Of a DNA stretch of 64,000 nucleotides, positions 42,201 through 61,261 are shown piece after piece. A program made the translations under genes and the position numbers. Positions within the stretch are counted from its first letter, which is position 1. Every line of letters begins with the position of its first letter. The notes under the pieces were generated by a model, which ran no database searches, had not been told where the DNA came from, and saw only the letters and a program-made list of their open reading frames with translations. The stretch comes from Lytechinus pictus (Eukaryota): positions 31,064,001 to 31,128,000 of the forward strand of contig NC_087245.1 of assembly GCF_037042905.1 (NCBI RefSeq), written 5' to 3'.

Positions 42201-45200
42201 TTCATATATTATAGCATTAAGAATTCACTGTAAAATTAAGAAGATTCTTACAAGTATAATAACAAAACTATTCAATAAAATTATAATTTAGGTATGAATA
42301 TTCATGATTTATTAATGTCCATCAATGATGTAATATTGTTCTTTCACTATGAAATATGTAACTGTTTTGAAAACAACTATGGATATATCACAATAGACAT
42401 AAAACAACTCTGCACAATATCAAATGAGCATTTCGCATTCGTCTTGCATACTCAAAAGAATCGGGATATATACAAAAAACAAAAGAAAATAGACACATTC
42501 CAAAATAAACCATATGAACTTTGATACAGGTCATCATTTCTCCCTGGCTGTGTTTGAACAAATCCAGAAAAGTGATTTCGCAATGAAATGGAAATAATGC
42601 AAGTTGGGAGAACTGGTCATTTGGAGGGGAAAAAATGTCTTTTATTTGTTGACATTCAGTTGGATGATGAAAGATGGAATAAGCATGTACATGTAATTGG
42701 TGAGAATTTTTCTTTTTCTTACTCACATACAGTGACCTGTGACCCAATTTTGAAGCATTCACGAAGGAAGCTGTGTTGGAAGCCAAATTCACAATTTGAC
42801 TCGAAAGTATACATAAAAGTGTGAGCGTATTGAGCATGAGGGTCTAGCCATATCAACTAGACTGTCAACTGATTTTCACGGCTAAACCCCGGAACAATGC
42901 ACTCATACTTACTATCGATGGTCACTTTGCATTTGGTTTCGGTCCCGTCATCGAACTTGACCTTGTACTCGCCCTTGTCGCCGGGGCCGATGTCGTAGAC
43001 CGTGAGCTCGATCTCGCCCTTGGCGGCCTTCATGCGGCACTTCTTGCTGGGGGCGATCTCCTTGCCATCTTTGAACCACTTGGGCTTGGTGCCCTCAAAC
43101 TTGGCCTCGCACATAAGTTTCATGCGGCCCTCCTTCTCGTTGACCTTGACATCCTTCAAGGGCATGACAATCTGGACAGGCTACAGATTAAACACATTAT
43201 CAAGTGATGAAGAATGAATATCTCAAATAAAGGATTGGAAAATGCTTATATTTTTTCAATTTAGTTTCGTCATTATGTTGAAAATTACAAGATACTGAAT
43301 ACACACGATGGCCTTTGACACAATAAAAAGAAAAATGAAATTAATAATAGGTTGAAGAAACGGTAGAGGATGTGCTGAATGTCCAAGGCATTTATTATGG
43401 TGAATCCTTACAATTTCTTTGGAATATATTCAAGTGAGAATGAAACAAAATGATATGAATTAAACTGAATATCTTTATTACTGGTCTGTGTTAGGAAACA
43501 TGGTCATTATTACTGATGTGTTACTGCTTTAAAACATTTCCATTGCTTTAATCATACAGAAAAAAAAAATGTTACCTTAGCCTTCAGTCCAGGGGTCTCT
43601 TTCAAGTCACCCCAGTCCGGTTCCGCGACCTTGGATTCCCTTCTTTCGACCTCCCTAAAGAGATGTCAGAACAAAGTGAAAATACTGAAGACCCTATACA
43701 ATAAATATACAATATTATATCAATAGAAAGCTGTAACGATGCTCATATATATAGTTTGCTGTAGTTAGTAGTCTACAGTGCTGATACTGTTGTTGTTGTT
43801 GTTGATGTTGTAAGTGTGAACTATAATAGTTTTGATGTTGTTGGTGACAATGTTATATTTTTTTTTTCTTTCTTAAATGTTATATTTGATGGCTATAGTT
43901 TTGATGATATAGTATACAAATATATCAGGCTTTGAGAAAGTATAGTGGGAATTATTTATCCGAGGATGGACTGGCAATAACTATTTTTCCCGAGGGGAAA
44001 ATAGTTACATTGCCAGTCCAACCAAGGATTAATAATTCCCACTATGCTTTCGAAAGAAACGCCTGATATATTTGTTTTATATCCCTCTTAAACTTTGTGG
44101 ACCTAGTCCTTGCTTATTTTTAACCAATCTCGACCAAATCTAACGTTGCCGGACCTAGCCTTCCTCTCTAACGTTAGGCCTGTCGAGCTAATTGCTAGAC
44201 AGTTCATGGGTAGGCTGCGCGCGGCTTCTACCCGACAGCACTTAATGAGAGGTCCGCTGCGCTGCGTTGGCCGTTGCTAGCTGCAGACTGCAGTGGCACT
44301 CAAAATGAATAGGCCTACCGGTACGCGCAGTTAAAATGTATGCTCTAAAAAATTAGTATCGGATCTTGACTCACCTTGTTAGGTATGTTTAGTCCATATT
44401 AAAGGATCCTGTATGAAAGGCCGTCGGAATTAAATTTTCTGCATTGTAATCTAGACCCAATTCCACACTGTTTTTCAGATTGTCGGAACGTTAATTTGGG
44501 CGAGAGCTTGTATTTTACTTTATTTACTTTTTGCGGATGATCGATTTATATCTGGGTCAAGTCAAGGAGCAAGCGCAATTTAAAGCTGAGAGAAAATATC
44601 GAGCATGAGCATGCGCAGTTATGCCCATGAAAGTATATCGAAAAATATACGGAGCTACAAGAAAACTATACGGAGCTAATTGCAGCGATGTGTTTTCCTA
44701 TTGAAATTATACTTTGTCACATGATCATGAATTGACCAAACATTTATTTAAAATGCTCATGAATATTCATAAGAGGGATATAATTGCTAATGTTGTACAT
44801 GTACATGTAGACAATGGTGTTGATGTTGTTGTTAACAAATGTGTAGTTGTAGACAATAATGCTGATGTTATAGTTGCCAATGTTAGTTTTTAGATTATAG
44901 TGTTAATGCTGTTACTGTCATGTTGATGCTATAGTTGTCAATGTTATTTAATAGACTATAGTGTTTAATGGTGTCAAGATCAATATTATAGCTATAGACT
45001 AATGTTGGTGCAGTTGTTGTCAATGTTATACATGTAGGCGTAGACTATAGTGATGATGATGTTGCACATGTTGTACGTGTAGACTATGTATTATCTGCAG
45101 AATAGTGCTGAAACTGTTGGTTCCAATGTTGTAGCTGTAGCTGTAACTGCAGACTATAGCCTACTGTTAATATTGCTGTTGTTATTGTTGTAACTGCAGA

Positions 45201-48200
45201 CTAAAGTGTTGATGGTGTTGCTGCTTATGTTGTAGCTGATATTGTATCTGTTGACATAGTAACTGATATTGTATACATTTCATAATAACAAATAATATTT
45301 AATGTTAGGTGCTTCAGGCGCTCCTATATTACCCTGGCTAAGCTAGTCAACCAAATCCGATATTCTCACAGTTTTTTTCCTGCCAGTACCCATTTACCTC
45401 ACCTGGGTTGAGTGCAGCACAATGTGGGTAAATTTCTTGCTGAAGGAAAACACGCCACAGCTGGAAATCAAACCCACATCCCTGTATTTTTTCATCTATT
45501 CTCACCTGTGTTTGAGAAGAGCCCTAAAGTCCAGTTCATCAGATTGTGCTTTCTCTGTAACAGGGATTCAATGAAATTCATAACATGTAAGTTTCAAGTT
45601 TTTTTGCAAACGCATTTCATTTTAAAAGAGAGACAGAAAAAGCTGTCGAACAGAGAGAAAAAGTAAAGACCATGTACTGCAAAATTAGCATATGGCATGG
45701 CCAAGGTATGTCCCATATGTTCAGAGTACCCTTAAACATTGTAAGCAAGTGTTGGTCTTGGCCCCGTCTTACAAAGACTGTCGATTGATCCGATCAACCT
45801 CAAATATATGGAAATCCATCAATGTCATAATTTTTTCTACAGGAAATTTGCACGATGTCCTTTGCAAACAAAGTAAAGCACACTGAATCATCAAGAAAAC
45901 GATGCATGTATGACTATACATCATAAGTATAGAATAATTTGAACAAACAAGCATTTTCGATTTTGATATTGCTGGCTTTCGATTGTTGTGGTTGCTCGGA
46001 TCAATCACAACTCTCAATATTTAACCCACTATTTATGCCTTTGAAAACGAACCAATGTGCATCAGGAAAGTCGACTTGGGTCACGTTTCATAAAGAATTG
46101 TTGTAATAACTAATTAACAATTATTTTTATAACAAATTCAATATCAGCCAATAAAATTGAACGATTTCAATAGCTTTTAACTGTCATTGCACATTTGTTA
46201 TTAAAACAGGTTTAATAAAAGGCCCTAGAAATTCCTCTTTCCAAGTAATCAGGTAAAAACTCTGATGAACAAGAATTATATGATTAACCATCTATATTGT
46301 TGAAAATGCAAAGATTTGAAATGGACATTTTAAAAATGAAAATTTAAATATGATATTTGTTTACTTTAAGCTCTAATTGAGCTAACAGAAAACACAAATT
46401 AAAGCCATGGTCACCAACTTATGGGGCGATATACCTTGGCCTTGCCCACATGTAGAAAAACAAACAATTATTCCAATTGAACAAATTAAAGTAACTTACA
46501 AATTTAATACATTAATCCACTGAAAAACAATCCAAAATCTATTTTGTTTAGAACATCTTTGAATATTACACAAGAAAATATAGCAGTGGGGAGCAAGAAA
46601 AAATTGTCCATATTGTTTGGCAATATTTTCTGAGCCCCCCTCCAAAAAAAAAATCTACTTTGCAAGAAATATAACAAGATCTTGCCAAATGAAGATTTGA
46701 CAAGCAAATAAAAAAGGAAAAATAGGGGATTATTTTTAACCCATAAGGAGGTATTTCCTTATATTATTTCAACAGATCATCCAGACAGATTTGCCACTGT
46801 CATATCACATAACCTTTTCTCACAATCCAATCAAATATCAGAGGGAATCCAAGTTTGTCAGGTAAAAGAAAACAAATCCGACAAATCTGGAAATCAGGAC
46901 ATGGTTTAACCAAAGAGCCTTTGCAAATAGCCATCTTTTTCTATCATCAATTCATCATGATATGCCCGGAAGATTTCTTGTTATAATCTATTATGAATGT
47001 AAATTGCATAACTTATAAATATTCATACAAATTGCGACATGTATTTAAGAATAACAATTTCTGTCATGATCGAGATAAACAGATAATTTGAGAAGTGATT
47101 GCACAAATTAATTATGTCACAATTATTCATTGTCACATCATTGACATATATGTCACAATTATATATGTCACACAGTTGAAAATAAGTTTACAAACAATTA
47201 CTTCATACATGTAGGGCATCTCATAACAAATCGGTGGTAAGAATGACTTTCATTGCAAAGGCCTTTGTGAAACGAGATTCTGTTCATGGCCCTATTTTCA
47301 CAAAACTTTTACAATACAAGATACTGGGAAGTTTATTGCTTAATTCATTGTGCTGATATTCGTCATTTTGTTCATAATACAGGGGAAAATCCAATCGTGA
47401 AATGGTGTTCAAGTTGTCGCAAGAAATGTGAGGATGGTGTATCATACCAAATCTTGAAACTACCTTGAAATTTTTACTCGGAAATGTAGATTTATTTCTG
47501 TTTTTCATCATTCTTTATTTGTCTGATTTTGCTAAACAATTTTAATCTAATTATTGTATACTTATAGTTAGGGTGTTTTTCTTTTAATTACAACAGAATA
47601 CAACAATCTATTATCAATAAATATGTTTTCATTCTTAAGAAGATTTTTTTCCTGTATTTGTCAAACTATAAGTTTGCTACATGTATAATCATTGAAACAT
47701 ACTTGTTTTACATGTAGATCCCCCCAAAATGACTGTGTGCTGGAGAGTTTATGCTTAACTTTCTAGGTATGTGCGATGGTAGGCACAATTCTGTTGTATT
47801 TCTTTCATATGGTTGGCCTATATTCTTTATACCATTACTTGGAAAAAATATCAGATTCGTTTCTATCCCTCATGTTTCTTTGGCTGCATTTCTGGAAATA
47901 AAAACATTTCCAGCTGTGTAGCCAAAATGTTTGAATGTGGAATTTTTCTATGACTATTAAAACAGACGGCCAAAACCAGAGGGAAGTTAAAATCAACTCA
48001 TCTTAAAGAATATAAACAATGCTTATATTTGCAGTCGCATTCAATGAATTTCATTGAATTTTATCTAATTATATGTCAGTAAAAAGAAGATGCTGATTTG
48101 GGCACAAGCTTGAATTTTTAGCATTTTTCAATATATTTCTTTAGTAGGAAGACCGTTTGGATATAATGTATTACAATTGTACAAAAAAATCAACATGGTA

Positions 48201-51200
48201 TAAAAGGGGTATGGTGAGCGAAATTAATTGATCAAATTGATTTGTTTAGGTTCAGTCTTCAATTTGTAGTAACTGAAAATAACCAATGTATAAATGTCAG
48301 GGAATTTCAAATTCAGGTATGGCTAGAAAGAAAATTAAAATTCTGAATGACTAATAAAAAAATTAGTTCCTACTGCAAGGATTATACAACGAACACAAGA
48401 CATATCCTTTGAAATGCAAAATATAAGTGTGGATTTATGTCGGAAATATTTTTTTTAATGAGAATCTTCCTTGAAATCTGATGCACAAATATCTCTATAT
48501 ATAGTAAATATATGTATGTTTTGAGAATGTTCTAATATAATATTTTGTAATATACATTTCAAAAATATTTCACAAAGTGCAGATTATTATCCAGATACTG
48601 GACAAAAAAAAATGTTGATGATAAAATTGGATTAAAATGTCATCATTTTTATCAAGAAACAGTTTTTACAACAATCATGGAAATATAACTTTATCTTTTT
48701 ATATGATAAATACAGTTCATCCAAAGGGGCGGATCCATTCACTTCAATCTCTATTTTAAACACACTCGATAGTCCCATTCATTCTTGCATAAATTTGCAT
48801 GAATTTGCAAAAACGTTATATCTATAAAAAAAAAACAATGATATATCAAAGCATTAAGAGAAAATCCGAGCAAAACTTGCATTTCCGAAAGATGCCAAAG
48901 TCAAATGAGGGAATGGGGGGAAATGGAGAGGGGAAATTGCTCAATTCCAGCTTTTAAGTCCTTGGTGCAAAAAAAGACGCTTTCAGAGTGCTTTCAAACC
49001 GTTCTTGCTTTTGATCTGGGTTGAGCATGCTTAAAATAGTAATTGAAGCAAGGGATAAAGTCTGATAGTAGCTGAGCAAAATAGGAGAGACATGTAAAAC
49101 CAAGGCATTTTATAATAAAACAAAGAAATGTATCTGGTCATGTAGTGTTTTCTTATCATTCTTTTCTATTCAATTTAATTCAATTCAATACTCTTAAGCC
49201 CCCATCACACTTATTCCAAATCAAGCAGAATTGGCCTGAATGAAAGGACTATTGTTTGACCACCAGTTGGTCATTTAAATCTACTTTAAACACCATTAAA
49301 AAATACCCCTCAAATGTTTTGAACATGACCAAAACCTTCGGGACAGCCAAAAGAAATGACAAAAATATTTCGAATGCACTCAGAATGCAGTCGGAATATT
49401 TAGAATGCGCCTAGAATGTCCAAAAATGTAGCACGAATTATCAATCTGAATCCATTGCAGTTCATTTTGACTAGTGTATGATGATTCACCTGGTCAATTT
49501 ACTGAATTTCAACTCCAGTTTGGTGAATTCATAAGTTCTTCCCAAAAATTCTTAGATTTTTTAAATATTTTTTTCGTCCAACTTCTGCTTGATTCCTGCT
49601 GATTCCGAATAAGTTTGATGGGGGCTTTACTTTAATTAAAGATTAAATAACAAAAATAACAGTGTTTGTATTTTCCTGCTTAATGCAAGCTCTTAGCTAT
49701 TATTCCCTACATCTTGGACATTTCCAGAAGAAACTTAGCCAATTACTTTAGACCTCAGTTAACTCTTTTTGCATTAAAGTGAGATCATCCTACATGTAAT
49801 TACGAGTATCTTCGGGCTTAAACTTGGACCACCAAATTGCAAGAAAATGTGCAGACATGACTTGAATAGGGGATAACTACTCCGCTTAATCAGCCAATCA
49901 AACGCAATAATTTTAATAAAGACATGTCTAGAATTGAATAGGTATGAACAAGACCTCAATGCAATTCAAACCAAGGTTTTACATGTACGTGTCTCTCTCT
50001 CATAAAAAAAATGTAAACTACAATCTTTATTCATTTTATAAAAATATATGAGGGGTTTTTTTTAGGAGATACAAAATTAAGAATAATCCACCTTGAGATC
50101 AACATAATTTACATAAATAGATTAAAGTTAAGAATTTGAATTAGATAAGCAAATTTTAAAAAGATTAATCAAAACCGAATGAAAAATAACGAATTCATTG
50201 CATTTTTATGCTCTACAGCAATTTGTGAAACACATTTTTGTTTTCCATTTAATTATATGAAATCATTCCTTTATTTCACAGATGTACATGTACTTTGGTT
50301 TAATATGTTCCTTGTATAAAAACAATTAATAATGAAATATTCAAAATAAATTTTGTAAAACATAAGAAAAGGAAATGGGATATAAAATGCCATCATTAGC
50401 TCATGTATTAGGAAATAGCATCTCTTATATTTCTTTAATGAAGGAATGTACAATAAAAATGGTGGAGCTCGTATTTTTCCTCTATTTTTTTTTGTTATTT
50501 CATGCAATGTTTAATTTTACTCTATTTACAAATCAGGTTCTCAGAGTGAATTTTTCTTGTAAGGTAAAGGTCCAAAGAAACATTTCATATAAGTATCGAT
50601 CATTTGTATTTTTTTTTCTAAAAGTGCTAAAATTCAGGGTGGGTTATGCAAGATCATTGTTTTGAATTTATACTATAAGAACACTTTTCAGTAGTCTTTA
50701 TTGCTTTGAGGCAAGATACATCATTCATGAATAAACAATATTGAAATTTAGGATTTTGGATGAAATAATCGATAAGTTGCGTAAACATAAAATGAACATG
50801 ATATTATCATTTTCATTCTGTAATTGATGTCTCAAAACTCTAACTGATGTGGGTTGTTATCATTATGAAAATTTTTATCATAAAAATAAAATTGAAATGC
50901 TACGATGAATGATCTATTCCTTAATAATTCAATTTTCAACAGTAATGTAACAGATCTCAACACCTAAATTCATTTAGACATAATTGTAGTTTGCTAGATA
51001 AACACAGGAAGTCTAGACAACCTCATTTTTGCATCTTGTCGAGGGAAAACAATAAACACTACTGAAAAGTGCAAGCAATTTATCAACTGACAATGAACGC
51101 CCGACTGGGGGGCACTGTTGCGATTCAAAACAACAATCCATATACCTCTGTTGCCTGCAGGCAGGGTGTGGTAGTGGTGGTGGTGGTAGTGGTTAAAAGT

Positions 51201-54200
51201 TGGGTGGTTGATGCATCGAAGGGCATAGAACAGGCGGGGCAAGTATCAGGGGAGAGGGTGGAGAGAGAGAGAGAGAAAGAGAGACAGGAACTCGGCAGTC
51301 AGTCATCTTGCACTTCATGGTGAGGGAAAATTGAAACTTGAAAAGAAAGTCATCAAGATGAAAATCTTGAGAATTATCATTCTTTTATCTCGGTGCGAGT
51401 GTGGATGAAGTGCAGATGAAAGGATGGAATGAGTGATGAGAGTACAGGTCATCAATCGCATTCAATGGAAAAGGAAAGGAGATGATGTGGAGAAATGAAC
51501 GTGAGATGAGAGAATGCAAGATGGATCTTCGGATGATGACGGTGAGGCATGAAAGGATGAATACCCCGGTAATGAGGATGAAACCTACTACCGTATCTGA
51601 TCATAACCTCTATAAGTGCCCCCCCCCCCATGTCAATACAAACCCATCTTTTTCTCAAAATAAAAACTAACTTGTCAAATCTTTAAACACATGTTAACCC
51701 ATAATTGAACCTTCTCACTTCTGTCTAACTATTCCTTTAATATTTTCATACCATTATCACAGAGATCCCAAGTGATCTAGGTAAATAATAATTCCATACT
51801 ATTACAATTATGATTACTAAAAGTTACATGTATGACTAATTTTTTAGCCTTTTCTAGATAATGATCTTCAAAAGAATTCTAGAAGTCGTCTGATAATCAT
51901 TCTTCCTTTCTCTTTTAAGCACTTTTGATTATTTTAGGAAAATGGATTTTGTGTAAAGAGGTGCAGATGCCGGTAGAAGTTGTTTGTTTAACAAGATATC
52001 ATATTCAATATTACCAACAATTATACTTCTGTTTTTCCTGATCCAAACTTTATTAAGACCAGTAGATCTTGAATAACTGATTAGGTAAAAAAATTGATTT
52101 CTTGGAGTAAAGCTGTCACGATCTTAAGTTTATCAAGAGCAAATCTAAATAACAGATTTGATTACTATTTTTTTTTTTTTGGAGTAAAATTTTTTTGACA
52201 CTGTAATTATAAATGAAAGAGACACACGTTTTATCAGCATTGCCATATGAGATATATTTTTTTTCAGTTGAGCAATACTGAAGTAAATTCCTTGCTTACA
52301 ACTTAAGAAATTAAGCTTTAATAAATCGATAAAAACAATGTTTTTCAATCTCTTTCTCAATTGCTTAATGAATGTTTTCTCGAACTAAGCCAGATAACAA
52401 AACATATCCCAAACATGATACACCCAGTCAATGGGAAGAATGAAATTAAATTGCCAGTTTTAATCAAAGACACAATTTCAAACGGCTTGGTGCTTTAATG
52501 TTAAGGAGTTTTGATTTGTTTTGTTTGAACAGTTACATACACCTGAACAAATATCTTAAGCGTTACAAAACAAAACTTTTATTTACTGCTATTCTTTCAT
52601 GATCTGGAAAGTTCTTCATAAAAACCGTTATCAGTGAATTTCACTGACTAATTTACTCTCAGCCAATCAGATGCAAGGATTTCAGTAGCTTATAACAAGC
52701 CTAAAGGTTTTGTTTCATGAAATGCTACCCAATTTCATTTCCAATGTCTCTGCATAAATGAATTAAAGGTAAAGTCCATCCCAGAAAAATGTTTATTTGA
52801 ACAAATAGAGGAAATTCAATCAATCTTATTTTACATCCTATTTTGATGAAATTTTCAGTGTTATGCTTGTTGGATTTTTCTCTTTTTATTCAAATCAACT
52901 TTTTGTTGGGGTGGACTTGTCCTTTAAAGAGATTGAAATTCATGTTAGGATTTCTGTCTGTTAAAATCCTTAATGAAACTTGATTTGACAAAGCGCAAAG
53001 TGCAATGACAGATGTGCTGAAGGAGATATGAAATTGAAGATAAATGGAAATGGGAAAGTGTGAAATGGAATTATGTGTGCTTGTGCTGGTGCAAATAATT
53101 CATTTAAAAATAAATTACTAATTATTTTGAAGAAGAAAAAAACTTTAACAAGTATACATCAATTCTATAGTCATAATATACAGATAATAATCAACAATTT
53201 GAATGTATATCTTCCTCATAAAGATAAATATTGTGTCAAAACTGAATACAGGTTGTTAGAAATATTGATTACAATTTTTGACTTCCACTTCAAATACTTG
53301 AAAAAACTTGTAACTTTCGTATTTACTGAGACAAAAACTCTTGTTAGGTACATGTACATCTACATTTACACTAGCATGTATGTTGAACTGCATCCTATAT
53401 GGCATGTAAAAATGGGTCCATCTCACAAAGATTTGCAATTGATCCAATTGATTTCAACTATGGAAAGCCAATGATCCCAACATCTAGAATAGATACATCC
53501 ATTCAAAGTGTTGTTGCGCATGACGCATCAGTGTTATTGGTATCAATAGATCTCCATAATTGAAATTGATTGGATCAATCGCAACTCCTTGTAAGACAGG
53601 GCCCTGATGTATGTGGAAAAAAAAAATGTATGAGGATGTGTTTACACAGTAAGGATTTACACAATGAAATAATAAACCAATGTATGATGATAGTGGATAT
53701 TGGATCAAAAAAACAAATCAATGGGAAATGAATATGTATGAATGAATGAATGAATGGATGGAGAAACATCGGCATGGAATATACTGACACGATGTAGTTT
53801 CTATGAAGCTAATCTCACTAAGCCAGCCATTTTTTATAACGTAAACAAATCAAATGCTTATTCCTCTGCTCAGTGCCTGTTACTAACCATTCTAAACGCC
53901 AATCACAGAATTTCACTTTGTTTATTGATATTTTTTTCTTTGTAAAAGGTGACTAAAATCATTCATACTTAGGCACTGCATAAAGTCATATGCATTAAAT
54001 TTGATTACAGAACAAAACTGACCATTTTGAACAATCCAATAACTTCTCCAAATTTTGATAGATAGTCTGTAATACAATTTGGCTCTCAACAAAAATAAAT
54101 ATAAAATCTTCCTGCTTCATTTTTAAGTTTTAATTCTTGAAGAATTCTTTGGACCATCTTCAAGGCAAAGCTGGAATTATTTTGTCACCCTCTAATAGTA

Positions 54201-57200
54201 TTTTTCAGTAAATCAAAATTAACAAAATTATAATCTATCATTCAGAATGAAAACCCAATTTTGTTCATGGCAAATGATTTATTTTATTTTCATATCAAAG
54301 ATAAGTTATTGGATTGTATCTTTGATGTTTATGAACCCGCGCTTTACAACAGCACCAAAAAAAAATCCAGTAAATCACCATAATTTTTCCCTCCACTTCA
54401 AGCTTCGTGATCTACAAAATCTACGATGTCTGCAAAGCTGCACTTTGAAACCCCCGAGTCACTATTCGCTACATCTGTGACACAACTGGCACGTTACTCA
54501 CCAATGTTTATATGACATTACATTCTCTCATAGCGGTTTGATAATTTACAGATTGGGGCAACTGGCTTATCAAAATGGGCACAATGGTCATAAAAATGAA
54601 ATCATGGTGTCCTGGAAAAACTCAGGTTTAATTAATTTCAATATGGTGGTGGAGAATAGTTGTTTTACACTTTCTTGTTAAATAAAGACAGCATTTGCAT
54701 CACGTGTGTCACTCAAGTTAGACATACATACTAGGGAGGATTAAGAATCTGACTTCAAAAAAATTAAGGAGGCACTTTGCTCTTAATTTTGCAAAATTCA
54801 CTCTTGCAAAAAGGGATAGTCACTTGTTTAATTGACAAAGAAGCTAAACGAGAAGACAATAAAAGCTATAAGAATTGTATCTAGAACAGTAGAGTAGCCA
54901 CAAAAACAGCTTAATGTATAAAGGCTACACAACATGTTTACAACACATTGACATTTGACAACGAATAAGTTCAAAAGAAATTTTTGTTCAAATTCTAGAT
55001 TTTTTCTAAACAATAATTTCAAGCTGACACCACAGATGCAAAAAGATGTCTTTTAACAAGAAAATGAACGTAAATGTTGACCTTAAGATTTAAGAGTCTT
55101 CAAGGTTTCTGACCAACCATTCCTCCACCATCACATTAGAAAGAATCACTTTGAAAGCATTGTACCTTCTCCTTCTTCATCCTCTTCCCCTTCGACTGAG
55201 AGATGGTGGTCAATCGTCGGAATGCAAATGATAAAAAGATGACATCAGGGCCGCCTCGCAAAATAATTAAACTTGGGATTGATAAGACAAAACTTGGGGG
55301 TGGAGAAAGAATAAAAGGGGGGGTGGAAACTCTTTTTCTTTTGCATTTCCGTTTTGCTAGTTTTTGGTGCCACATTGTGCTGGTAATAAAGTGCCATGGT
55401 TGCCGAAGCCGGGCGGCATGAGCAATGTGCTGGTGAGACGTGATCACAAGGGGTTCGACGGGTAGGATCGGAGGTCTGATGGGATGGGAGGAGGTGAAAT
55501 CATAGTAAATGAGTACGGGAAAATGAGGAGAGGGCGGGAAAGGGATGATGGGTAACTGTTATTAGGGGCAAGACCGGTATTAAGTGATGCCACATTTGCC
55601 TTGTTCAAAAGAAACAAAACGTTGCCATTCTCTGAAAGCCCTTGTAATCCTTGGGATGGGTTGGGTCATACGTCAACCGAGTTGCGATACAAAATTTGCA
55701 GGATGCAACATAACCTTTAAAGCATCGGAGTGCAGAAATCGCTTTTAATCGTAATCCACTCAAAGGGTGGATTTTTTGCGTGTGTGATGTATACAGGTAT
55801 GTGTATGGGTGACATTAGAATGGTGTTTTGGGGACAGACAAGTACATTCTGACATGATTTTAATGAATGTGATCACAAGAGGTGATATGGCATATATACA
55901 AAAATGGTAGTTGAACAGAGATGAAAGATTATAACTTGTATAAAATTACAAACAAATCACATCAAAGATTTGATACAAAAAGGTTTGATTCTAAAATATG
56001 ACGGACATTTTGGTGTGTGCGTTAATGTATTTACCAACATGTTCTATGGCCAAATATAGTTCACAAAGATTTTACTTTGATTGCTATGGTTATAAATTCT
56101 GTATTTCAAAGGTGTAGGTTTATTCATTAAATATTCTTTAATCTGTAAGAATGACATAGTTCTTTGGACAGCTTTCAGATATTTAACTATCCCTGATCAA
56201 GTCCCAAGCTCTTTTTAACAGATAATTATTTTTTCATTAATTTGCCTAACATTACTTTGTGAAAGTAAAAGTAGATAAAATAAAGGAATATTTCTGCTCT
56301 GCGTAATGCTTCATTACATTTCGATCACAGCAATTCCACAAAGCCAGGGTCAGAAAAAAGCTTAGAGAGAAAGATCTCCTTTAAATGAAAAAATACCAGC
56401 AAAGTAGAAGTCAAAAGCATGGAGAAAAAAAAGAGCAACATCAACACCAACACATTTTAAAATATTAATTCCATCAACTCAAATACTATCAGTTATTATC
56501 TATAAGTGACAGGACAAACTCTCAAAACAACAAGAAAAGCTGAGTGTTATTAAAGAAAATAAACAGACTTCAAATCAAATGGCTCCCTCTCTTGGTTAAC
56601 TCCACTTCCGTCCCGACTGAATGTCTACACACTGGATACTTAACAATATTAGAATGATGATTTTGTTATTTTCACAGGGGTTATTATTATTTTTGTGACG
56701 AGTATACTCTTCCAAGCAACTGTGTAGCAACGATGAAGGGTAATTGCGTGTAACTGGTGTTTGGGGTGATCATTGTTAGGTTTTGACATTATTTAAAAAA
56801 AGCACAAATTGAATTGAGAATGATGTTGTGAGAGTACCGGTATACGTTATATGAATGATACACATGTATATCTGTGCACAATGGCGCATTTCAAGAAGAA
56901 TATAAATTGGATGTGTGTATATATAATATGAAAAGAGATTATATAAAGGGATTACTTAATCTGGTGACAACCAATCAGAGAGGGTGCAGAAATTAATTCA
57001 CACTCAAGGCCACACAATCAGATTTATTATCAGCTATAAACAACAATATTAAAACATCAAAAGACATGTATAGATATATATCAAAATTATTTTTAAAAAA
57101 GTTGTAATAATTAGCATCTTTACATATCCTCTGATGGACTATCAAAACATACATCTATAATTATTTCAAAACTTGAGTTAAAATTCATTCATTGTTTCCA

Positions 57201-60200
57201 GTTTTATTATTCCACTGCCAGACGATTCATCAACAGCCTTTGATGACATAATACCATTTAATTTTCAATTGCATTTTATATATTTGAACAAATGGTGTAA
57301 AGAGATATTGTTGTTTTGTTTCATTTTTAAAGAATCATTTACATATGAACTAAAATTTCTCAACTCAAGTTAACCATTTAGCAACAAGTAAACTCGATGT
57401 ACATACTTTGTTAACCTGAATCAATAACACATTTATATAGAAATCTGAAACTCCAAATGATTACAAGTAACATATGCTTTCATTCTTCAATATTCTTCAA
57501 ACTTTACCATTCCTCTAAATAGGCAAAACAAGACAGGCTATAGATAAGAGAATAATTGTGTATGCTGTAATTCAGTGAGGAAATTACCCCTAATTGAAAA
57601 ATATGATAATCTAGATCAAATTATTGAATCATCTGAAATAATGACTTTGCAGTTGTTGGTTTTTGTCGCAAAATATTGATTATTGAATTACTCTGCAAGA
57701 GTTTGGACACTTTAAGGAAAATAGTCTCCAAACTAGTTGCTCCTGAATGAAATTATGATATATGATGCCTTGAAAAAAATATTTATTATGCATACAAATA
57801 GAACAATAATAAAGTCAAAGTTTTGACAGATGATGTGTGCCATACAGAAGAGTTAATTTAGACAAATTTTCAGAGTAATTTTTGATAATTTTATTGAATA
57901 TGTTTAGCATTTCAATAAAACTTTATTCCATTGAAGAAATCCTGATAAGTTTAGTATCATCTACTACATGTATATTTTGTAATCCAAACCTTTATTAGAT
58001 ATCAAAAAGATTATGAAAAACAAATTGATAAAAGCCTACAAACAGCTATGTCAAACATGAATTGTCAAACATGTCCTTTATACTAGGATGAAATAATTTT
58101 CTTTGAAAACCTACAAATTTGTTATGATGGAATTTTTTTCCCTAATGCAAAATATTAAAACTTTCAAAATGTCTTTTACGTCCTATACAGCATCAATTTA
58201 ATCTTCAAAGCTTGAATTGAATCTGAATTCTCTAATTCATATTGGTCAAATTCAGGATCTATGAATTCCAATAAGCCTAAGGATTGACTTTGAATCTTAG
58301 GCTATTCTGGTATGTCATCTTGAAATGATCAAAATCATTTGCTGTAAAATTATTTTTTCACCTTCTTTCCAAATGATGATGGCAAGATGGCCTTTTCATA
58401 TAATCAAGGTCAAAATTTTAACTCTTGCAAGCCCTCTATATAACAGAAAGAACTCAAATAACAGAACATTTTGAAATAATTTGGGAAGCAACTCGTTGAT
58501 AGATGTGTAAGTTTTCTAAACCCTAGAACATTGCACATGTATTGTTTTTTTATTATCAAACAGCTGTTTCTACAGACACAAATTGAAGTAATTGAACACA
58601 ATTTAAAACGTATTTTCTAAAATCAACGTTTATTTTCTCAAGTTAACACCTACTGTATTACAGCCTTTGAGAAAACAGGCCAGAGAGATCCAAAGATCTG
58701 CATCACCATCACACTGCCTCGAATCTGACGTGTTTCTAATAAATGAAAATAAAACCATTTCACAGCAACACCTATGTGGACTACTCCAGATGTGTGGGTG
58801 CATAATCGTGTGTTATAATTTCTTCACGTGTTTTTCCTCAACTCAACCAACACTGCAAACCTCACTATTTCAAAAGAATTCAATAATCTGATTCCGGTAT
58901 CAGCAAATTCAAACTATTCCCCAAACCACTCCCTTGGAATTATCCTTTTCCTTCACGACGCTCCAGCATCGAGGGAGGGAGGGAGCGCGGAGGTAGGCTT
59001 CGGGCGAGCCGAAGGGGAGAGGGTGAAAATAAAAGAAGTGACTTTTGGGAGAGCCGAAGGGGAGGAGAAGATGAAAGAGAATAGGTAAACTGAGGGAGGA
59101 GCTGGTGGTGCCCAGTACTTACGTGTGACCATTAGGGAGAAGACACGCTCGTCCTTGCCGTGCTCGTTCTCGAGCTTGCAGGAGAACTTTCCAGAGTCCA
59201 TCGAGTCGGCATTCTTTATCGCCAGAGAGTGGACCCTCGTCTTTTCATTGTACTTCACCTGCAATTGGAAAAGCATGGTTTGATAAATGTATCAAGAATA
59301 TGATCATAACCATAACCAGAACAACGTTTGGTATCTCATGAACAATTGTACATTATAAAATACACATTCATTCGTTCATTGCATTTAGTTTTGGATAAAT
59401 CCCGCTGTTTCAATTGCTGTATAAATAAAATATTCTTTGAAAATATAAAGGGAGTCATTTTATCCAAGCAATTCTTCCTCATTACCAAATGCCCCAAAAT
59501 ACATGCCCGTAGGTAGTTTCTCCAAAGGTGCCATCAACACATAAATCTTTAAAACCTTAATCTCCTTCCTCTATACTTATTATTTGTGCTTTTTATATGG
59601 TTCCATGACATTTGCTCCGGCGACAATCGCTCCGCACTAAATTCCACACACTATATAAATGACCAACTTCAACCCTTGGTTTAACACTACACCCTACCCT
59701 AAACCTAACATAAAACACTACTGCAACCCTAACCCTGCAGCTTAGATGAAATTAAAGGTCAAGTCCACCCTATAAAAATGTTGATTTGAATCGATTAGGG
59801 AAAAATCAAACAAGCATAACGCTGAAAATTTCATCAAATCGGATGTAAAATAAGAAAGTTAGGACATTTTTAAGTTTCGCTTATTTTTCACAGAACAGTT
59901 ATATGCACAACTCAATGACATGCAAATGAGAGAGTCGATGATGTCCATCACTCACTATTTCTTTTGTTTCTTATTGTTTGAAATATAGAATATTTCAATT
60001 TTTACAGATTTGACAATGAGGACCAACTTGACTGATTCATAAAATGTTAAGGCGAAGGTAATTCCACATGTTCAGGGAGGAATGAAACTTTGTTTCAAGG
60101 ACAATGAGAAAATGGGAATATATCATACTTCATATAATGAAATACAAAAGAAATAGTGAGTGAGTGATGTCATCAGCTCCCTCATTTGCACACTGAACAG

Positions 60201-61261
60201 GATGTGCATATAACTGTTTTGTGAAATTAAGTGAAACTTAAAAATATCATTATTAACTTTCTTATTTTACAACCGATTTTGATGAAATTTTCAGTGTTGG
60301 ATTTTTCTGTTTTTATTCAAGTCAACTCTTTGTTGGGGTGGACTTGTCCTTTAAGCCTGGAGCAAATTTCGTGTCACCATTTATACATCTGTAGAAAATT
60401 TATATACTGCCAATTATCTAACTGTCATGGTTGCAATAAATATCTAAATGAATAAAAAAAAAATCATAAATAAACACTTACAGCATATCTTCCCTTCATT
60501 CCATCTTTGATCTCGTTCTTTCCTTTGAACCACTTGACTGATGGGGTAGGTTCACCAGCAACCATGGCTTCAAATTTCACATTCTGACCTGTATGGTATA
60601 AAGGAAAACATCATGTTCATGAAAGGCTACATACATATATTTGGATCCTCCTGAAAATTTTCTACAGTATTTGACCTGTCTATTAAGGCCAAATGGGAGA
60701 CAATAATTACAGGCAACGAAACACAGGTTTTCACTACAGACAGGTAGAGGCTCAGACGGGTTTGACTGTATTAAATATACATGCAGCTATTACAGAGTAT
60801 ATGCATTAGGGAACTCTTGATTTTACAACCTAGCCCATGATGTACATTCAGTTTTACCTTTACCGATTTCTCCTCTAGCTCCATACGCAGTTAGAATGAG
60901 AAAGACGGTAACAATGGGGCCTGGGCACTTTTAAATGGGGGGGGGGGGGAAATGACCCCATATTTATATTAATTTCTTCTTTGAATATAAAACAAAGAGT
61001 ATTACTTAGGTTCATGACCAAGCTATCTCTATCTCTCTCTCTCTTCCTTTGTCAATCTTTCATTCTACATTTTTCTTTATGCATCACATGATCTAATCAT
61101 TAGAGGGTCAACCACGCCCCCTTCCTATAGTGCACCCCCCCCTTTTGATCCTATACACTATTCATCCATGTTCTTACCTTCGGGAGTGGAGCATTTACTG
61201 GGTGTCTCAACAAAGTACGGTGAGATATCAACTGGACCCTTGTCCTTCTTCTTTCTCTTTC
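108..61261 (-). CDS. Partial multi-exon gene: giant Ig/FN3 sarcomeric protein (twitchin/projectin/titin-like; N-terminal part reminiscent of IGFN1/MyBP-C); both ends lie outside the window
   Basis: About 40 GC-richer exons with GT-AG ends that splice in frame. Repeated FN3 signatures (P..PG.P...W..P..DGG..I.GY.VEK...W...L..G..Y.FRV.A.N..G), I-set Ig signatures (G.P.P...W.K, D.G.Y) and a DFRALLKHR...PDWGDLK linker. Confidence 0.95.
871..1021 (-). CDS. Exon, FN3 C-terminal half (VNDYNVKETTLPVSNLRDTAEYEFRVFAKNKAGKSSPS...)
   Basis: cag/gtaagt, YEFRV.A.N.AG motif. Confidence 0.9.
1065..1490. repeat. Degenerate (CAT/CAC)n trinucleotide microsatellite
   Basis: Directly visible; source of spurious poly-H/I/S/M ORFs. 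Confidence 0.95.
1513..1661 (-). CDS. Exon, FN3 N-terminal half (DPPEAPGKPTADEVDRGFVRLSWTAPEADGGSPIIGYIVEKK...)
   Basis: tag/gtaag, FN3 motif. Confidence 0.9.
2045..2347 (-). CDS. Exon, complete FN3 domain (DKPSAPEGPL...KDPF)
   Basis: cag/gtaac, phase 1-1; overlaps ORF 1956..2234. Confidence 0.92.
2842..4209 (+). pseudogene. 5'-truncated PLE ORF: reverse transcriptase plus GIY-YIG endonuclease
   Basis: RT motifs SYDVTALFTSVP, QIHGAAMGSPISP, RYVDD, FLD, VYRKPT; endonuclease motifs GPIYLIPC...C..SYIEET.R...KEAIYI...LNRDGG. ORF part 2596-2841 is host flank plus inverted pLTR. Confidence 0.88.
4221..4271 (+). ncRNA. Minimal type I hammerhead ribozyme motif in the PLE pLTR (inverted copy at 2766-2816, minus strand)
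   Basis: CUGACGA(A) core, stem II GGUUGC-aguua-GCAGCC, GAAA, palindromic AAUU stem III, imperfect stem I gucacaucg/cgagguaac. Confidence 0.7.
4502..4625 (-). CDS. Exon, Ig C-terminal half (DTELSTIMVNSEAERGDAGTYAVTFNNEKGTDTATVRIIVV)
   Basis: tag/gtgagt, D.G.Y motif. Confidence 0.9.
5493..5662 (-). CDS. Exon, Ig N-terminal half (VKPKVDSSCRNREIIAVAGEKFRVEISFESSPPPNITWS...ITFE)
   Basis: tag acceptor, weak gtctgg donor, phase fits the next exon. Confidence 0.85.
6535..6630 (-). CDS. Exon, FN3 C-terminal part (GTSYEFRVKAVNEAGPGKPS...)
   Basis: tag/gtaat. Confidence 0.9.
7314..7520 (-). CDS. Exon, FN3 N-terminal part (DPPGMPSQPEV...FKLAE)
   Basis: cag/gtata. Confidence 0.9.
7727..7812. repeat. 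Short (GAT/GGT)n tract, an inverted copy of part of the 1065-1490 microsatellite
   Basis: Shares the variant units ctaccattatctttaccatcatcaataccatc in reverse complement. Confidence 0.8.
8607..8903 (-). CDS. Exon, complete FN3 (EPDLPQGPVQASDITPDSV...AKNPF)
   Basis: cag/gtgagt, phase 1-1. Confidence 0.92.
9595..9876 (-). CDS. Exon, complete Ig (ERPKLDIGNLEDIKVKGGEKF...VKVTVL)
   Basis: cag/gtacgt; ORF 9587..9916. Confidence 0.92.
10119..10278. mobile_element. Short MITE, TIR ggggagygtttcat...atgaaacgctcccc; close relative at about 21302-21460
   Basis: Terminal inverted repeats; shared internal sequence (gacaagttgtcaga...gattggctgag). Confidence 0.7.
10757..10907 (-). CDS. Exon, FN3 C-terminal half (CLEVSPKEESAEVPDLIEGEELEFRVRANNEECPG...)
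   Basis: cag/gtttac. Confidence 0.87.
11741..11901 (-). CDS. Exon, FN3 N-terminal half (PADAPGRPTLEKVTKDSATISWSKPVSDGGAPIKGY...)
   Basis: cag/gtaagt. Confidence 0.9.
12461..12763 (-). CDS. Exon, complete FN3 (DEPDAPPAPKIDGM...AKDPI)
   Basis: tag/gtaag. Confidence 0.92.
13064..13363 (-). CDS. Exon, complete FN3 (DRPTAPQGPIEYSEF...KLPF)
   Basis: tag/gtaag. Confidence 0.92.
13582..13869 (-). CDS. Exon, complete Ig (EAPKIDTSGFGLGDLRVKAG...SVVVL)
   Basis: cag/gtgag. Confidence 0.92.
14396..14508. mobile_element. Short MITE, TIR ggggcctgtttcat...atgaaacaggcccc (Harbinger-like ends); relatives at about 7936-8072, 25420-25566, 46078-46225, 52604-52730, 61451-61598
   Basis: Perfect 14-bp TIR; the relatives share a recurring agccaatca core. 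Confidence 0.7.
14541..14843 (-). CDS. Exon, complete FN3 (EAPASPGKPRIPTYDKT...AKAQY)
   Basis: cag/gttagt. Confidence 0.92.
15334..15636 (-). CDS. Exon, complete FN3 (DRPSPPRGPLEISEVYAD...AKNPY)
   Basis: cag/gtaagt. Confidence 0.92.
15984..16265 (-). CDS. Exon, complete Ig (ARPELKGDKLRDVKIKAGQEF...SVVVQ)
   Basis: cag/gtaag. Confidence 0.92.
16599..16904 (-). CDS. Exon, complete FN3 (DEPSAPGVPEVVDYDRDF...KPKF)
   Basis: cag/gtgagt. Confidence 0.92.
17165..17670 (-). mobile_element. 5'-truncated non-LTR retrotransposon (L2/CR1-group) 3' end
   Basis: KLQYAQNTAARVL...HISPILQKLH.LPI..RI...APKYL...RSLRS...RAFS..AP.WN.L resembles the ORF2 C-terminus of this group; (TTA)n tail near 17165-17176. 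Confidence 0.8.
18352..18466 (-). CDS. Exon, FN3 C-terminal part (VTRLVEGTEYMFRVAAENSEGVS...AKNPY)
   Basis: tag/gtatgt. Confidence 0.9.
18841..19028 (-). CDS. Exon, FN3 N-terminal part (DKPMQPKAPLEITDVFSE...DTTLK)
   Basis: cag/gtacgt. Confidence 0.9.
19074..19285 (+). mobile_element. Degenerate tRNA-derived SINE
   Basis: A-box tggctcaatggtagagc and B-box-like ggtttgatccc followed by a non-tRNA body. Confidence 0.6.
19758..20000. repeat. Tandem repeat, about 85-bp unit x3 (gcaattagaccaaat...)
   Basis: Visible repeated units. Confidence 0.75.
20081..20210 (-). CDS. Exon, Ig C-terminal half (MRSTPVETELSTWGATRGDSGGYTVTVQNPYG...)
   Basis: cag/gtaag. Confidence 0.9.
20613..20764 (-). CDS. Exon, Ig N-terminal half (PPKLELKNMRDQTVKAGQTFKLNLKFSGTPYPTAKW...)
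   Basis: cag/gtact. Confidence 0.9.
21579..21690 (-). CDS. Exon, FN3 C-terminal part (VPAEEGEDYDLRVVAENEAGLSQPS...KDPE)
   Basis: tag/gtaagt. Confidence 0.88.
22121..22308 (-). CDS. Exon, FN3 N-terminal part (DPASSPGDLVVGDITKD...GTKFT)
   Basis: cag/gtaagt. Confidence 0.9.
22365..22610. repeat. AT-rich tandem repeat, about 85-90-bp unit x3
   Basis: Repeated tatgcaatataat...tttgaaaagtgagatatgtt. Confidence 0.8.
23075..23182 (-). CDS. Exon, FN3 C-terminal part (GLTQGSEYQFRVSAINKVGTSEPS...)
   Basis: aag/gtgagt. Confidence 0.88.
23769..23963 (-). CDS. Exon, FN3 N-terminal part (EPPDAPDAPKVIATANGCISLEWSKPGFDGGRPITGY...)
   Basis: cag/gtgagt. Confidence 0.9.
24070..24585. repeat. Degenerate minisatellite, about 21-bp unit (accatcaagaatatcaccacc)
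   Basis: Visible periodicity. Confidence 0.85.
24627..24777 (-). CDS. Exon, FN3 C-terminal half (VAESRVRDKTYQVTGLTEGKEYLFQVSAVNSVG...)
   Basis: cag/gtaag. Confidence 0.9.
24982..25309. mobile_element. MITE, TIR ccc.cattccacaga...tctgtggaatg.ggg with internal gaaagacc repeats
   Basis: Terminal inverted repeat visible. Confidence 0.65.
25707..25855 (-). CDS. Exon, N-terminal half of the first FN3 (DLPGSPTDVKVTAYNEETVTLTWEAPKDDGDSPVSHY...)
   Basis: cag/gtaag; absent from the ORF track. Confidence 0.9.
26432..26713 (-). CDS. Exon, complete Ig (EKPSLKTDTLKDVTANAGEQV...KVKII)
   Basis: cag/gtaagt. Confidence 0.92.
30358..30366 (-). CDS. Candidate 9-nt microexon (A-K-P)
   Basis: ctcag|CTAAGCCAG|gtaagtc, phase 1-1 like its flanking exons; weak pyrimidine tract. 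Confidence 0.45.
31017..32647. mobile_element. Foldback-type non-autonomous DNA transposon, TIR taggagtgggctat, 7-bp TSD ttactag
   Basis: Long inverted arms about 31100-31490 / 32188-32575 and 31535-31590 / 31995-32055; TSD at 31010-31016 and 32648-32654. Confidence 0.85.
34068..34337 (-). CDS. Exon, complete Ig (EAPSMSAKLDPMSEVFAGEDFEL...LKIQ)
   Basis: cag/gtagg. Confidence 0.92.
34742..34910 (-). CDS. Exon, Ig C-terminal part (VEWTKDGKPF...DKGKYTCKFG...)
   Basis: cag/gtgagt. Confidence 0.9.
35541..35635 (-). CDS. Exon, Ig N-terminal part (AKPKFLQELKDISIVEKRTGVLECEITDAEAK)
   Basis: tag/gtatt. Confidence 0.88.
36262..36540 (-). CDS. Exon, complete Ig (SKPKIDFITLIKTVEVDEGADAKY...LLVK)
   Basis: cag/gtgggt. 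Confidence 0.9.
36900..37200. repeat. Tandem repeat, about 95-bp unit x3 (attgattacacatactgat...)
   Basis: Visible repeated units. Confidence 0.7.
39709..39763 (-). CDS. Candidate 55-nt cassette exon MSEPEYRKLQKQGLMPKD (phase 0-1)
   Basis: gcacag|ATG...GAC G|gtaggc; GC-richer than flanks; C/T-rich upstream tract. Confidence 0.6.
41221..41243 (-). CDS. Candidate 23-nt microexon (N)YQTFARR (phase 1-0)
   Basis: gatag|ATTATCAAACTTTCGCTCGAAGG|gtatga; phase complements the 55-nt exon. Confidence 0.55.
42913..43180 (-). CDS. Exon, complete Ig (PVQIVMPLKDVKVNEKEGRMKLMCE...KVTID)
   Basis: tag/gtaagt, phase 0-1. Confidence 0.92.
43576..43654 (-). CDS. Linker exon EVERRESKVAEPDWGDLKETPGLKAK (phase 2-0)
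   Basis: tag/gtaac; DWG.LK motif. Confidence 0.85.
43916..44783. mobile_element. Non-autonomous DNA element: about 160-bp terminal palindrome (43916-44075) plus 14-bp inverted repeat ttatatccctctta (44077-44090 / 44770-44783)
   Basis: Inverted repeats directly visible; interrupts a degenerate GTT/GAT-rich tract. Confidence 0.65.
45305..45485 (-). mobile_element. SINE fragment; a related 3' piece lies at about 40045-40150
   Basis: Both loci share ttaggtgct..aggc.ctcctatat.accc.ggctaagctagtc. Confidence 0.55.
45506..45554 (-). CDS. Linker exon EKAQSDELDFRALLKHR (phase 1-2)
   Basis: cag/gtgag; DFRxLLK motif; phase joins the 43654 exon. Confidence 0.88.
49197..49626. mobile_element. MITE with an imperfect TIR of about 35 bp (agcccccatca.acttattc..aatca), Harbinger-like
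   Basis: TIRs visible, TTA-type flanks. Confidence 0.75.
51146..51154 (-). CDS. Candidate 9-nt microexon GCAACAGAG (phase 1-1; x-N-R)
   Basis: ccctgcctgcag|GCAACAGAG|gtatat, preceded by a long C/U-rich tract. Confidence 0.45.
52767..52923. mobile_element. Internally deleted copy of the TTAA-flanked MITE at 59756-60350
   Basis: ttaa|aggtaaagtcca...tggacttgtcct|ttaa. Confidence 0.75.
55166..55195 (-). CDS. Candidate 30-nt acidic microexon (L)EGEEDEEGE (phase 1-1)
   Basis: ctctcag|TCGAAGGGGAAGAGGATGAAGAAGGAGAAG|gtacaa; purine-rich, frame-preserving. Confidence 0.6.
59123..59258 (-). CDS. Exon, Ig C-terminal half (VKYNEKTRVHSLAIKNADSMDSGKFSCKLENEHGKDERVFSLMVT)
   Basis: cag/gtaagt, phase 0-1. 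Confidence 0.9.
59756..60350. mobile_element. Kolobok-like MITE (AGG...CCT ends, TTAA TSD) nested in an older TIR element (about 59598-60380)
   Basis: ttaa|aggtcaagtccacc...ggtggacttgtcct|ttaa; outer inverted repeat atttgctcc / ggagcaaat. Confidence 0.75.
60482..60588 (-). CDS. Exon, Ig middle (GQNVKFEAMVAGEPTPSVKWFKGKNEIKDGMKGRYA)
   Basis: cag/gtaagt. Confidence 0.9.
61178..61261 (-). CDS. Exon, basic stretch plus Ig start (KRKKKDKGPVDISPYFVETPSKCSTPE)
   Basis: cag/gtaag, phase 1-1. Confidence 0.85.

Follow-up and report, generated by a model that had tools for sequence, protein, structure and literature searches.

Long-range RNA pairing that masks splice sites is established for Dscam1 and a few other genes. 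In Dscam1, Ubs6.1 and Dbs6.40, about 10 kb apart, pair so that the acceptor of exon 6.1 is masked and the exon repressed (PMC8791459). We analyzed a 64,000-nt stretch of the genome of the sea urchin Lytechinus pictus (contig NC_087245.1, positions 31,064,001 to 31,128,000; hereafter the window, whose own coordinates are used throughout). Spliced protein mapping identifies the minus strand of the window as a twitchin gene. Two tandem intronic elements, E1 and E2, lie just past the donor of exon U of this gene and are antisense to a 30-nt microexon, A, that is found 3.8 kb further on. The complementarity is real and unusual, and any function of it is putative. Modeled RNA folding suggests that a long-range duplex may mask microexon A and promote its skipping, in the manner of the Dscam1 balancer, a tentative reading to which we give a probability of roughly 0.42. 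The features on which the comparison depends are as follows.

59123 to 59258, minus strand: exon U, the second half of Ig domain 7, ending in phase 1, from letter-for-letter spliced mapping of the L. pictus twitchin-like protein P0260
59084 to 59116, minus strand: E0, a weaker segment just after the donor, predicted to pair co-linearly with the intron 30-60 nt downstream of A (−24.8 kcal/mol)
59051 to 59087, minus strand: E1, an antisense copy of the acceptor AG, the entire exon A and the donor G/GUA, with 29 identities in 37 columns and a core mostly free in the local fold
59006 to 59041, minus strand: E2, a second antisense copy, with 26 identities in 33 columns, 45 nt from E1 (−43.0 kcal/mol with E1 masked)
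58998 to 59014, minus strand: 6-bp local hairpin over the acceptor-binding core of E2, pair probability 0.80-0.88
55166 to 55195, minus strand: microexon A, 30 nt, phase 1-1, purine-rich, giving L-EGEEDEEGE-E, present in 6/6 L. pictus models
55105 to 55135, minus strand: purine-rich intron segment downstream of A, the partner of E0 in the duplex scan and co-fold
51146 to 51154, minus strand: microexon B, 9 nt, phase 1-1, with CAG and GT flanks, giving R-N-R-E when A is skipped

The predicted arrangement resembles the Dscam1 balancer in pairing over a long distance (about 10 kb there, 3.8 kb here), in setting an intronic element against an intron-exon boundary so that the acceptor is masked (PMC8791459), and in having several intronic elements that compete for one exon-boundary target (PMC8791459, PMC12962786). 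E1 is, as a prediction, a distant intronic element of this acceptor-covering kind. The Dscam1 partners lie downstream in a duplicated 48-exon cluster together with docking/selector pairs, and have covariation and mutational support (PMC8791459), whereas the candidate elements described here are upstream beside a donor, are arranged in tandem, cover a whole exon including its donor and address a single non-duplicated microexon. Neither a duplicated cluster nor a selector set with which E1 could work jointly was found.

Docking/selector systems (Dscam exon 6, 14-3-3zeta, Mhc, ATE1) also have an element just after an upstream constitutive exon that pairs over kilobases (PMC10790352), the position that E1 and E2 occupy beside exon U, and the neighboring optional exons A and B never occur together in 15 echinoid models, which may be a further likeness. 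In the described systems, however, each variant exon has its own intronic selector, whose pairing activates that exon (PMC10790352), whereas the partner here is exon A itself. We found no single site facing several intronic selectors, the donor block gaining only −2.8 kcal/mol when co-folded with the B region. Nor are A and B a tandemly duplicated exon cluster: A is acidic and 30 nt long, B is basic and 9 nt long, and they have no evident shared sequence. No convincing selector for B was detected, the only pairing being that of a G run at 51606-51640 with 58965-58995 (−36.6 kcal/mol), and in a fold of the entire region this run takes a local partner. We therefore rejected the docking/selector label that a preliminary description of this DNA had applied to E1 and E2: the partner is exonic and is one target facing two upstream copies, a selector set is lacking, and the two exons are not duplicates. 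The minus-strand G run, which lies upstream of the B region and is of low complexity, has either a local partner at 51195-51257 or the C-rich 58965-58995, and might form a competing structure.

Splice-site blocking and loop-out structures (tau exon 10, SMN2 exon 7, Nmnat, PHF20L1, PLP1) likewise hide splice signals or loop out a cassette exon (PMC10790352), and the E0 helix would add a loop-out of that type. In those examples blocking is done by local hairpins, and most long-range pairing joins one intron segment to another (PMC10790352), whereas a distant element would here lie along the full exon. The upstream donor-proximal tandem pair and its cover of an entire microexon differ from the cases compared here. 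The literature searched, an incomplete set outside which most subscription papers fall, described neither this locus nor any equivalent structure, and held no case of long-range splice-site masking of a whole microexon, none for twitchin and none for echinoderms. ADAR editing-complementary sequences, as in the GluA2 Q/R site, ADAR2 auto-editing and Drosophila synaptotagmin, are similar in that exon and intron partners, possibly kilobases apart, can form an imperfect duplex of some 30 bp containing A-C mismatches, the usual ADAR substrate; most of these sequences lie downstream of the exon, whereas E1 and E2 are upstream of A.

Complementarity between the donor-proximal elements and microexon A

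E1 and E2 form a tandem pair spaced 45 nt, 42-116 nt past the donor of exon U (59122). The preliminary description had located the two elements at 59007-59038 and 59052-59081 and their target, AG plus exon, at 55166-55197, and both the coordinates and the sequences were accurate. The E1 match starts at the acceptor AG and ends at the donor GGUA, within 116 nt of the upstream donor, which supports masking. Over the acceptor the two elements are identical for a 14-nt core, their remaining halves being different, and this core has exactly two occurrences in the 812-Mb genome, at E1 and E2. A transposon or dispersed repeat was rejected as their source, the region having one BLAST match and the core two genome matches.

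The duplexes of the elements with exon A have predicted energies of −41.9 and −44.9 kcal/mol (−42.9 and −43.0 kcal/mol with other window edges). E1 and E2 are the two best of 12792 minus-strand windows, at −46.0 and −44.7 kcal/mol, followed by −35.1 kcal/mol, and the next-best minus-strand partner of A in 204 kb reaches −36.0 kcal/mol, which puts E1 and E2 ahead by 7-8 kcal/mol. With both elements masked, the best partner is at −28.8 kcal/mol in the upstream intron and −31.8 kcal/mol in the downstream intron. The preliminary description had proposed dinucleotide-shuffled controls for the duplex, and against shuffles the claim stood: the real energy was reached in 8 and 3 of 3000 shuffles of the element and in 2 and 1 of 3000 shuffles of the exon (1-8/3000 per element), and only 1/177 shuffled exons reached it against both entire flanking introns. 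By the ratio of best partner energy to perfect-duplex energy, A takes the top two places among the 178 exon-edge windows of the gene (0.64, against a mean of 0.41 with sd 0.046).

The net gain after local folding is −20.8, −29.1 (co-folds) and −35.3 kcal/mol, varying with segment size and before any loop penalty; control means for the net co-fold gain are −12.0 and −11.6 kcal/mol, against the real −35.3 kcal/mol. The loop penalty for 3.8 kb is near 9 kcal/mol and would not cancel this gain, and a duplex of A with E1 or E2 is thermodynamically plausible after local folding. In the co-folds E1 is the partner of A, and a 12-bp helix of 59063-59052 with 55197-55186 covers the acceptor AG and exon start with a predicted pair probability of 0.91-0.97. 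The E2 core stays in its own hairpin, the alternative local fold that the preliminary description had correctly drawn for one copy, and E0 extends the structure co-linearly downstream of A with pair probabilities of 0.74-0.95. No local fold was significant against shuffles (donor block z −0.43, A region z −0.99, B acceptor region z +0.57). Also co-linear with the E0 and E1 helices is an 8-bp minus-strand helix of 59117-59124 with 55068-55075, noted post hoc, which covers the donor of U at a probability of 0.96.

Optional microexons in the Ig7-Ig8 linker of twitchin

Spliced mapping of P0260 placed 4792 of its 4984 aa, the first part of the protein, residue for residue on 89 exons in the window and its flanks, and ends only at the edge of the flanking sequence used. 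Ig, Fn3 and kinase Pfam matches on the cluster representative assign the protein to the twitchin/projectin family. By the domain count of this mapping, the microexon site is the linker between Ig domains 7 and 8. The minus-strand exon order is U (59258-59123), A (55195-55166), B (51154-51146), C (45554-45506), the RRES exon (43654-43576) and Ig8 (43180-42913), and exon U is joined to exon 60482-60588 in the RNA-type run X11.

45506 to 45554, minus strand: exon C (KAQSDELDFRALLKH), from the P0260 mapping, its peptide found in 15/15 echinoid models listed
43576 to 43654, minus strand: RRES-motif exon of the Ig7-Ig8 linker, from the P0260 mapping, the region of the mussel twitchin D1 site

In insect projectin, which belongs to the same protein family, the PEVK region is alternatively spliced. 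Mussel (Mytilus) twitchin has its D1 phosphorylation site between Ig7 and Ig8, and catch is released when PKA phosphorylates this site (PMC12040844). The sea urchin optional exons sit in the Ig7-Ig8 linker of the same family, the linker that bears D1 in the mussel (PMC12040844), and the position of the RRES serine suggests that it may be the equivalent of the mussel D1 site. No RNA-structure control of the Mytilus D1-linker or the insect projectin PEVK exons was found in the literature searched. We know of no function for echinoderm linker inserts.

Inclusion and skipping were counted from database models, not from reads. The 15 echinoid models comprise six with A, six with a basic microexon B of 9-12 nt, two with no insert and one with another insert; none contains A and B together, both are skipped in 2/15, and no species has both A-only and B-only models. 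The B insert, of which the preliminary description makes no mention, is present in 5/5 L. variegatus models and 0/6 L. pictus models. Of the S. purpuratus models, one is without insert and the other (X2) has a 12-nt B-like insert; the single D. antillarum model has neither A nor B, and the single D. setosum model has a 10-residue insert whose sequence is unlike A. Microexon A is absent from eight other echinoid models, those of L. variegatus (5), S. purpuratus (2) and D. antillarum (1). Three Amphiura models outside the 15 have no long insert and no difference at the A/B position. Include/skip pairs at the same position were found among 23 other models: one of three Asterias rubens models skips 15 aa, one of five Acanthaster planci models skips 14 aa and one of eight Antedon mediterranea models skips 6 aa.

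Microexon A has canonical CAG and GT flanks and preserves the reading frame. It is a genuine exon at an optional position, in agreement with the preliminary description, which had proposed the 30-nt exon from the sequence: it occurs in all six L. pictus models, and the position is optional in echinoid, sea star and crinoid models. Short, in frame, with canonical sites and used in some models only, A has, when species are compared, the properties of an alternative microexon. If the antisense elements were chance, the lasting result would be two optional microexons of opposite charge in the twitchin linker, with B absent from six L. pictus models. The six L. pictus models are further distinguished by additional optional exons at window positions 39709-39783 (minus strand) and at three places outside the window (57, 27 and 162 nt). 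An intron segment 1.3 kb upstream of exon C, 46864-46897, pairs on the minus strand with 45523-45557, the acceptor plus first 30 nt of that exon, at −32.6 to −34.7 kcal/mol; it ranks 4th of 178 by ratio, has a single genome match, and may be chance or a second exon-covering element.

Three further minus-strand features lie in the introns upstream of the two microexons; the motif YCAY is that of NOVA (PMC10790352).

55361 to 55560, minus strand: YCAY-rich tract upstream of A with possible Nova-type sites, 11 YCAY in 200 nt, 99th percentile of 204 kb
51371 to 51570, minus strand: dense YCAY tract upstream of B, 19 in 200 nt, 99.8th percentile and third densest 200-nt window in 204 kb
51248 to 51260, minus strand: 13-mer about 100 nt upstream of B in common with E2 (59013-59025), the two being its only minus-strand copies in 204 kb; it is of low complexity and may be chance

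Sequence conservation in a close relative

Four of 20 runs were compared on 55040-59300 at 93% likeness, among them the DNA run X4 of a close relative, organism B. One block stands out in run X4.

55196 to 55415, minus strand: acceptor and strongly conserved intron block upstream of A, from run X4 of organism B

Over 55176-55415, run X4 has 2 substitutions in 238 nt (0.8%), whereas six other intron pieces together have 52 in 1122 nt (P = 0.001), and the acceptor and first 20 nt of A (55176-55195) are without change. A is therefore under selection in organism B. The piece at 58771-59300 has 29 substitutions, 28 of them in 58818-59300, and 8 gap letters, all accounted for by its 5 listed indels; these are at or below 58973 and none is in E0-E2 (P about 0.06, post hoc). 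No splice joint over A was seen in the runs compared, among the pieces listed. A metagenome scan for orthologous DNA of this locus found none. The conservation data neither prove nor exclude use of the pairing between A and the elements.

Model of microexon masking and its alternatives

In the masking model, E1 and E2 would be transcribed first and retained in the intron just after the donor of U. When A emerged 3.8 kb later, E1 would pair over its acceptor AG, its purine-rich body and its donor, with E2 as a reserve copy kept by its own hairpin. Pairing would block exon definition of A, and U would then join B or C. A would be included when proteins or kinetics prevail, for example if a factor bound the C/U-rich elements or if SR-type proteins occupied the exon, whose GAA-rich sequence is a typical SR enhancer; a further candidate switch is the binding of Nova-type factors to the YCAY clusters that precede A and B. 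At a point 20 residues ahead of the RRES motif, the protein would thus carry the acidic insert of A, the basic insert of B or no insert. Masking and skipping are favored because the strongest helix falls on the acceptor AG and the duplex runs along the GAA-rich exon to the donor. The complementarity and its extent, the gene structure, and the models with and without A across species are observed; the formation of the duplex in vivo, the repression of A, its relief and any effect on the protein are inferred.

The fullest form of this model, in which a tandem intronic antisense pair covers the whole acidic microexon over 3.8 kb and release of the mask decides between the acidic A and basic B inserts beside a D1-like motif, we regard as doubtful. 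If true, RNA structure would control a pair of microexons in an echinoderm muscle protein that are unrelated, not duplicates of each other and opposite in charge. A functional mask would be a compact, testable natural analog, in a laboratory sea urchin, of an exon-skipping antisense oligonucleotide, and would link RNA structure with how charged the twitchin linker is, a linker whose phosphorylation releases catch in molluscs. Over all duplex readings taken together, our judgment leans somewhat toward the duplex having a function of some kind.

Several results weigh against masking. The energy claim that held against shuffles did not hold as well against real sequence: of 156 other composition-matched purine-rich 36-mers in 604 kb, 4 reach a ratio of at least 0.61 and 7 reach −44 kcal/mol with a partner within 4 kb, or about 3-4%. 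With the A window shifted by one base its ratio in this 36-mer control is 0.59, a value that 5 other windows reach. Only by second-best partner, a point in favor of masking, is A first of 157 matched windows (0.59, against 0.57 for the closest control), a rank to be read with the caveat that the tandem second copy is not an independent event. Genomes are richer in purine/pyrimidine tracts than shuffles, and the complementarity is beyond shuffles and only moderately rare among real purine-rich sequence. In co-folding, 2 of 89 controls came close to the real gain, the donor block gaining −33.3 kcal/mol with an unrelated repeat and −32.6 kcal/mol with the G run at 51600-51780. E0 alone is not significant, its energy being equaled in 362/3000 shuffles. 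The element block (58818-59104) carries about 17 substitutions in 287 nt in organism B, or 5.9%, which is not below the 4.6% of other intron pieces; the count is an estimate by subtraction (11 in 59105-59300 from another run) for the whole block and not separately for its approximately 95 pairing positions, and the 4.6% background is biased low by the likeness filter. Substitutions between the elements and A are mostly of the G-U type, as the preliminary description had noted: the two alignments together show 7 changes of G-U type, 2 of A-C type and 1 transversion, with one change common to both. The asymmetry, which that description had taken as a mark of selection on the duplex, is not significant, since a simulated inverted copy under neutral or AT-biased decay matches the strand asymmetry of −6.1 and −6.4 kcal/mol (P = 0.20-0.48), and we rejected it as evidence of selection. 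Finally, six of six L. pictus models include A; the mask was therefore not dominant in the RNA behind them and must be conditional.

Much of this would be expected if no functional duplex existed, which we consider a serious possibility, if somewhat short of an even chance. The elements would then be a C/U-rich donor-near tract that was later duplicated in tandem at 45 nt, being either a silencer or enhancer bound by proteins of PTB, PCBP or Nova type or an inverted copy in decay; the match to A would be incidental, and proteins binding the YCAY and pyrimidine tracts would control A and B. The matched windows with equally good partners and the background-level substitution in the element block fit such an account, simulated neutral decay of an inverted copy reproduces the duplex energies (P 0.08-0.34) as well as the asymmetry, the YCAY clusters upstream of both microexons are at the 99th and 99.8th percentiles, and a 13-mer of E2 is found again upstream of B, which would suit a protein-binding motif. 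It accounts less well for a match that ends at the exon's own splice sites and adjoins the upstream donor, neither of which is expected from chance or random inversion, for the identical, genome-unique 14-nt core of the two copies, for the lack of indels in the elements of organism B, and for the 1/177 composition-keeping shuffles that reach the real energy. The duplex might instead be functional without masking. As an ADAR editing-complementary sequence, it would direct A-to-I editing at A-C mismatches or at the acceptor A, the proposed sites being exon nt 11 against E1 (synonymous), nt 16 against E2 (Asp to Gly) and the acceptor A (which would abolish the splice site). Each alignment has one A-C mismatch, and the duplex of about 30 predicted pairs is within the size range of roughly 20-30 bp or more. 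Sea urchins possess both ADAR1 and ADAR2, and splice sites can be created or removed by editing (PMC3391646). Against this, run X11 has no listed piece over exon A, the site in the better context is synonymous, and the freedom of gap placement in the alignments makes the mismatch positions soft. We regard editing as improbable. We think it similarly unlikely that the duplex is an RNA bridge promoting inclusion, holding A near the upstream donor and displacing the local fold of A with the pyrimidine tract, so that branch point and tract become free, until a helicase unwinds it. Folded alone, A binds back to the tract upstream of it, which conceals the AG (probability 0.94-0.98), most of this tract is released when E1 pairs, and A is included in all six L. 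pictus models; but the local fold of A is no better than that of shuffles (z −0.99), the two splice sites both lie under E1, whose strongest helix is at the AG, and the bridges that have been reviewed join sites via elements other than the regulated exon (PMC10790352).

Other features of the window and related models

Between 45400 and 59300 there are many further strong pairings over long distances, which resemble copies of inverted repeats. The strongest long-range pairs of these introns are formed by short inverted-repeat copies resembling miniature inverted-repeat transposable elements, at 52761-52927, 59750-60354, 53421-53596 and 45755-45815. Translations of open frames within twitchin introns point to retroelement remnants with reverse-transcriptase-like sequence at 2563-4206 (plus strand), which we take to be Penelope-like, and at 17305-17838 (minus strand). 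L. variegatus has a separately named, near-identical twitchin-like model (P0265, compared with P0255, P0261, P0266 and P0268), which may be a duplication or an assembly artifact.

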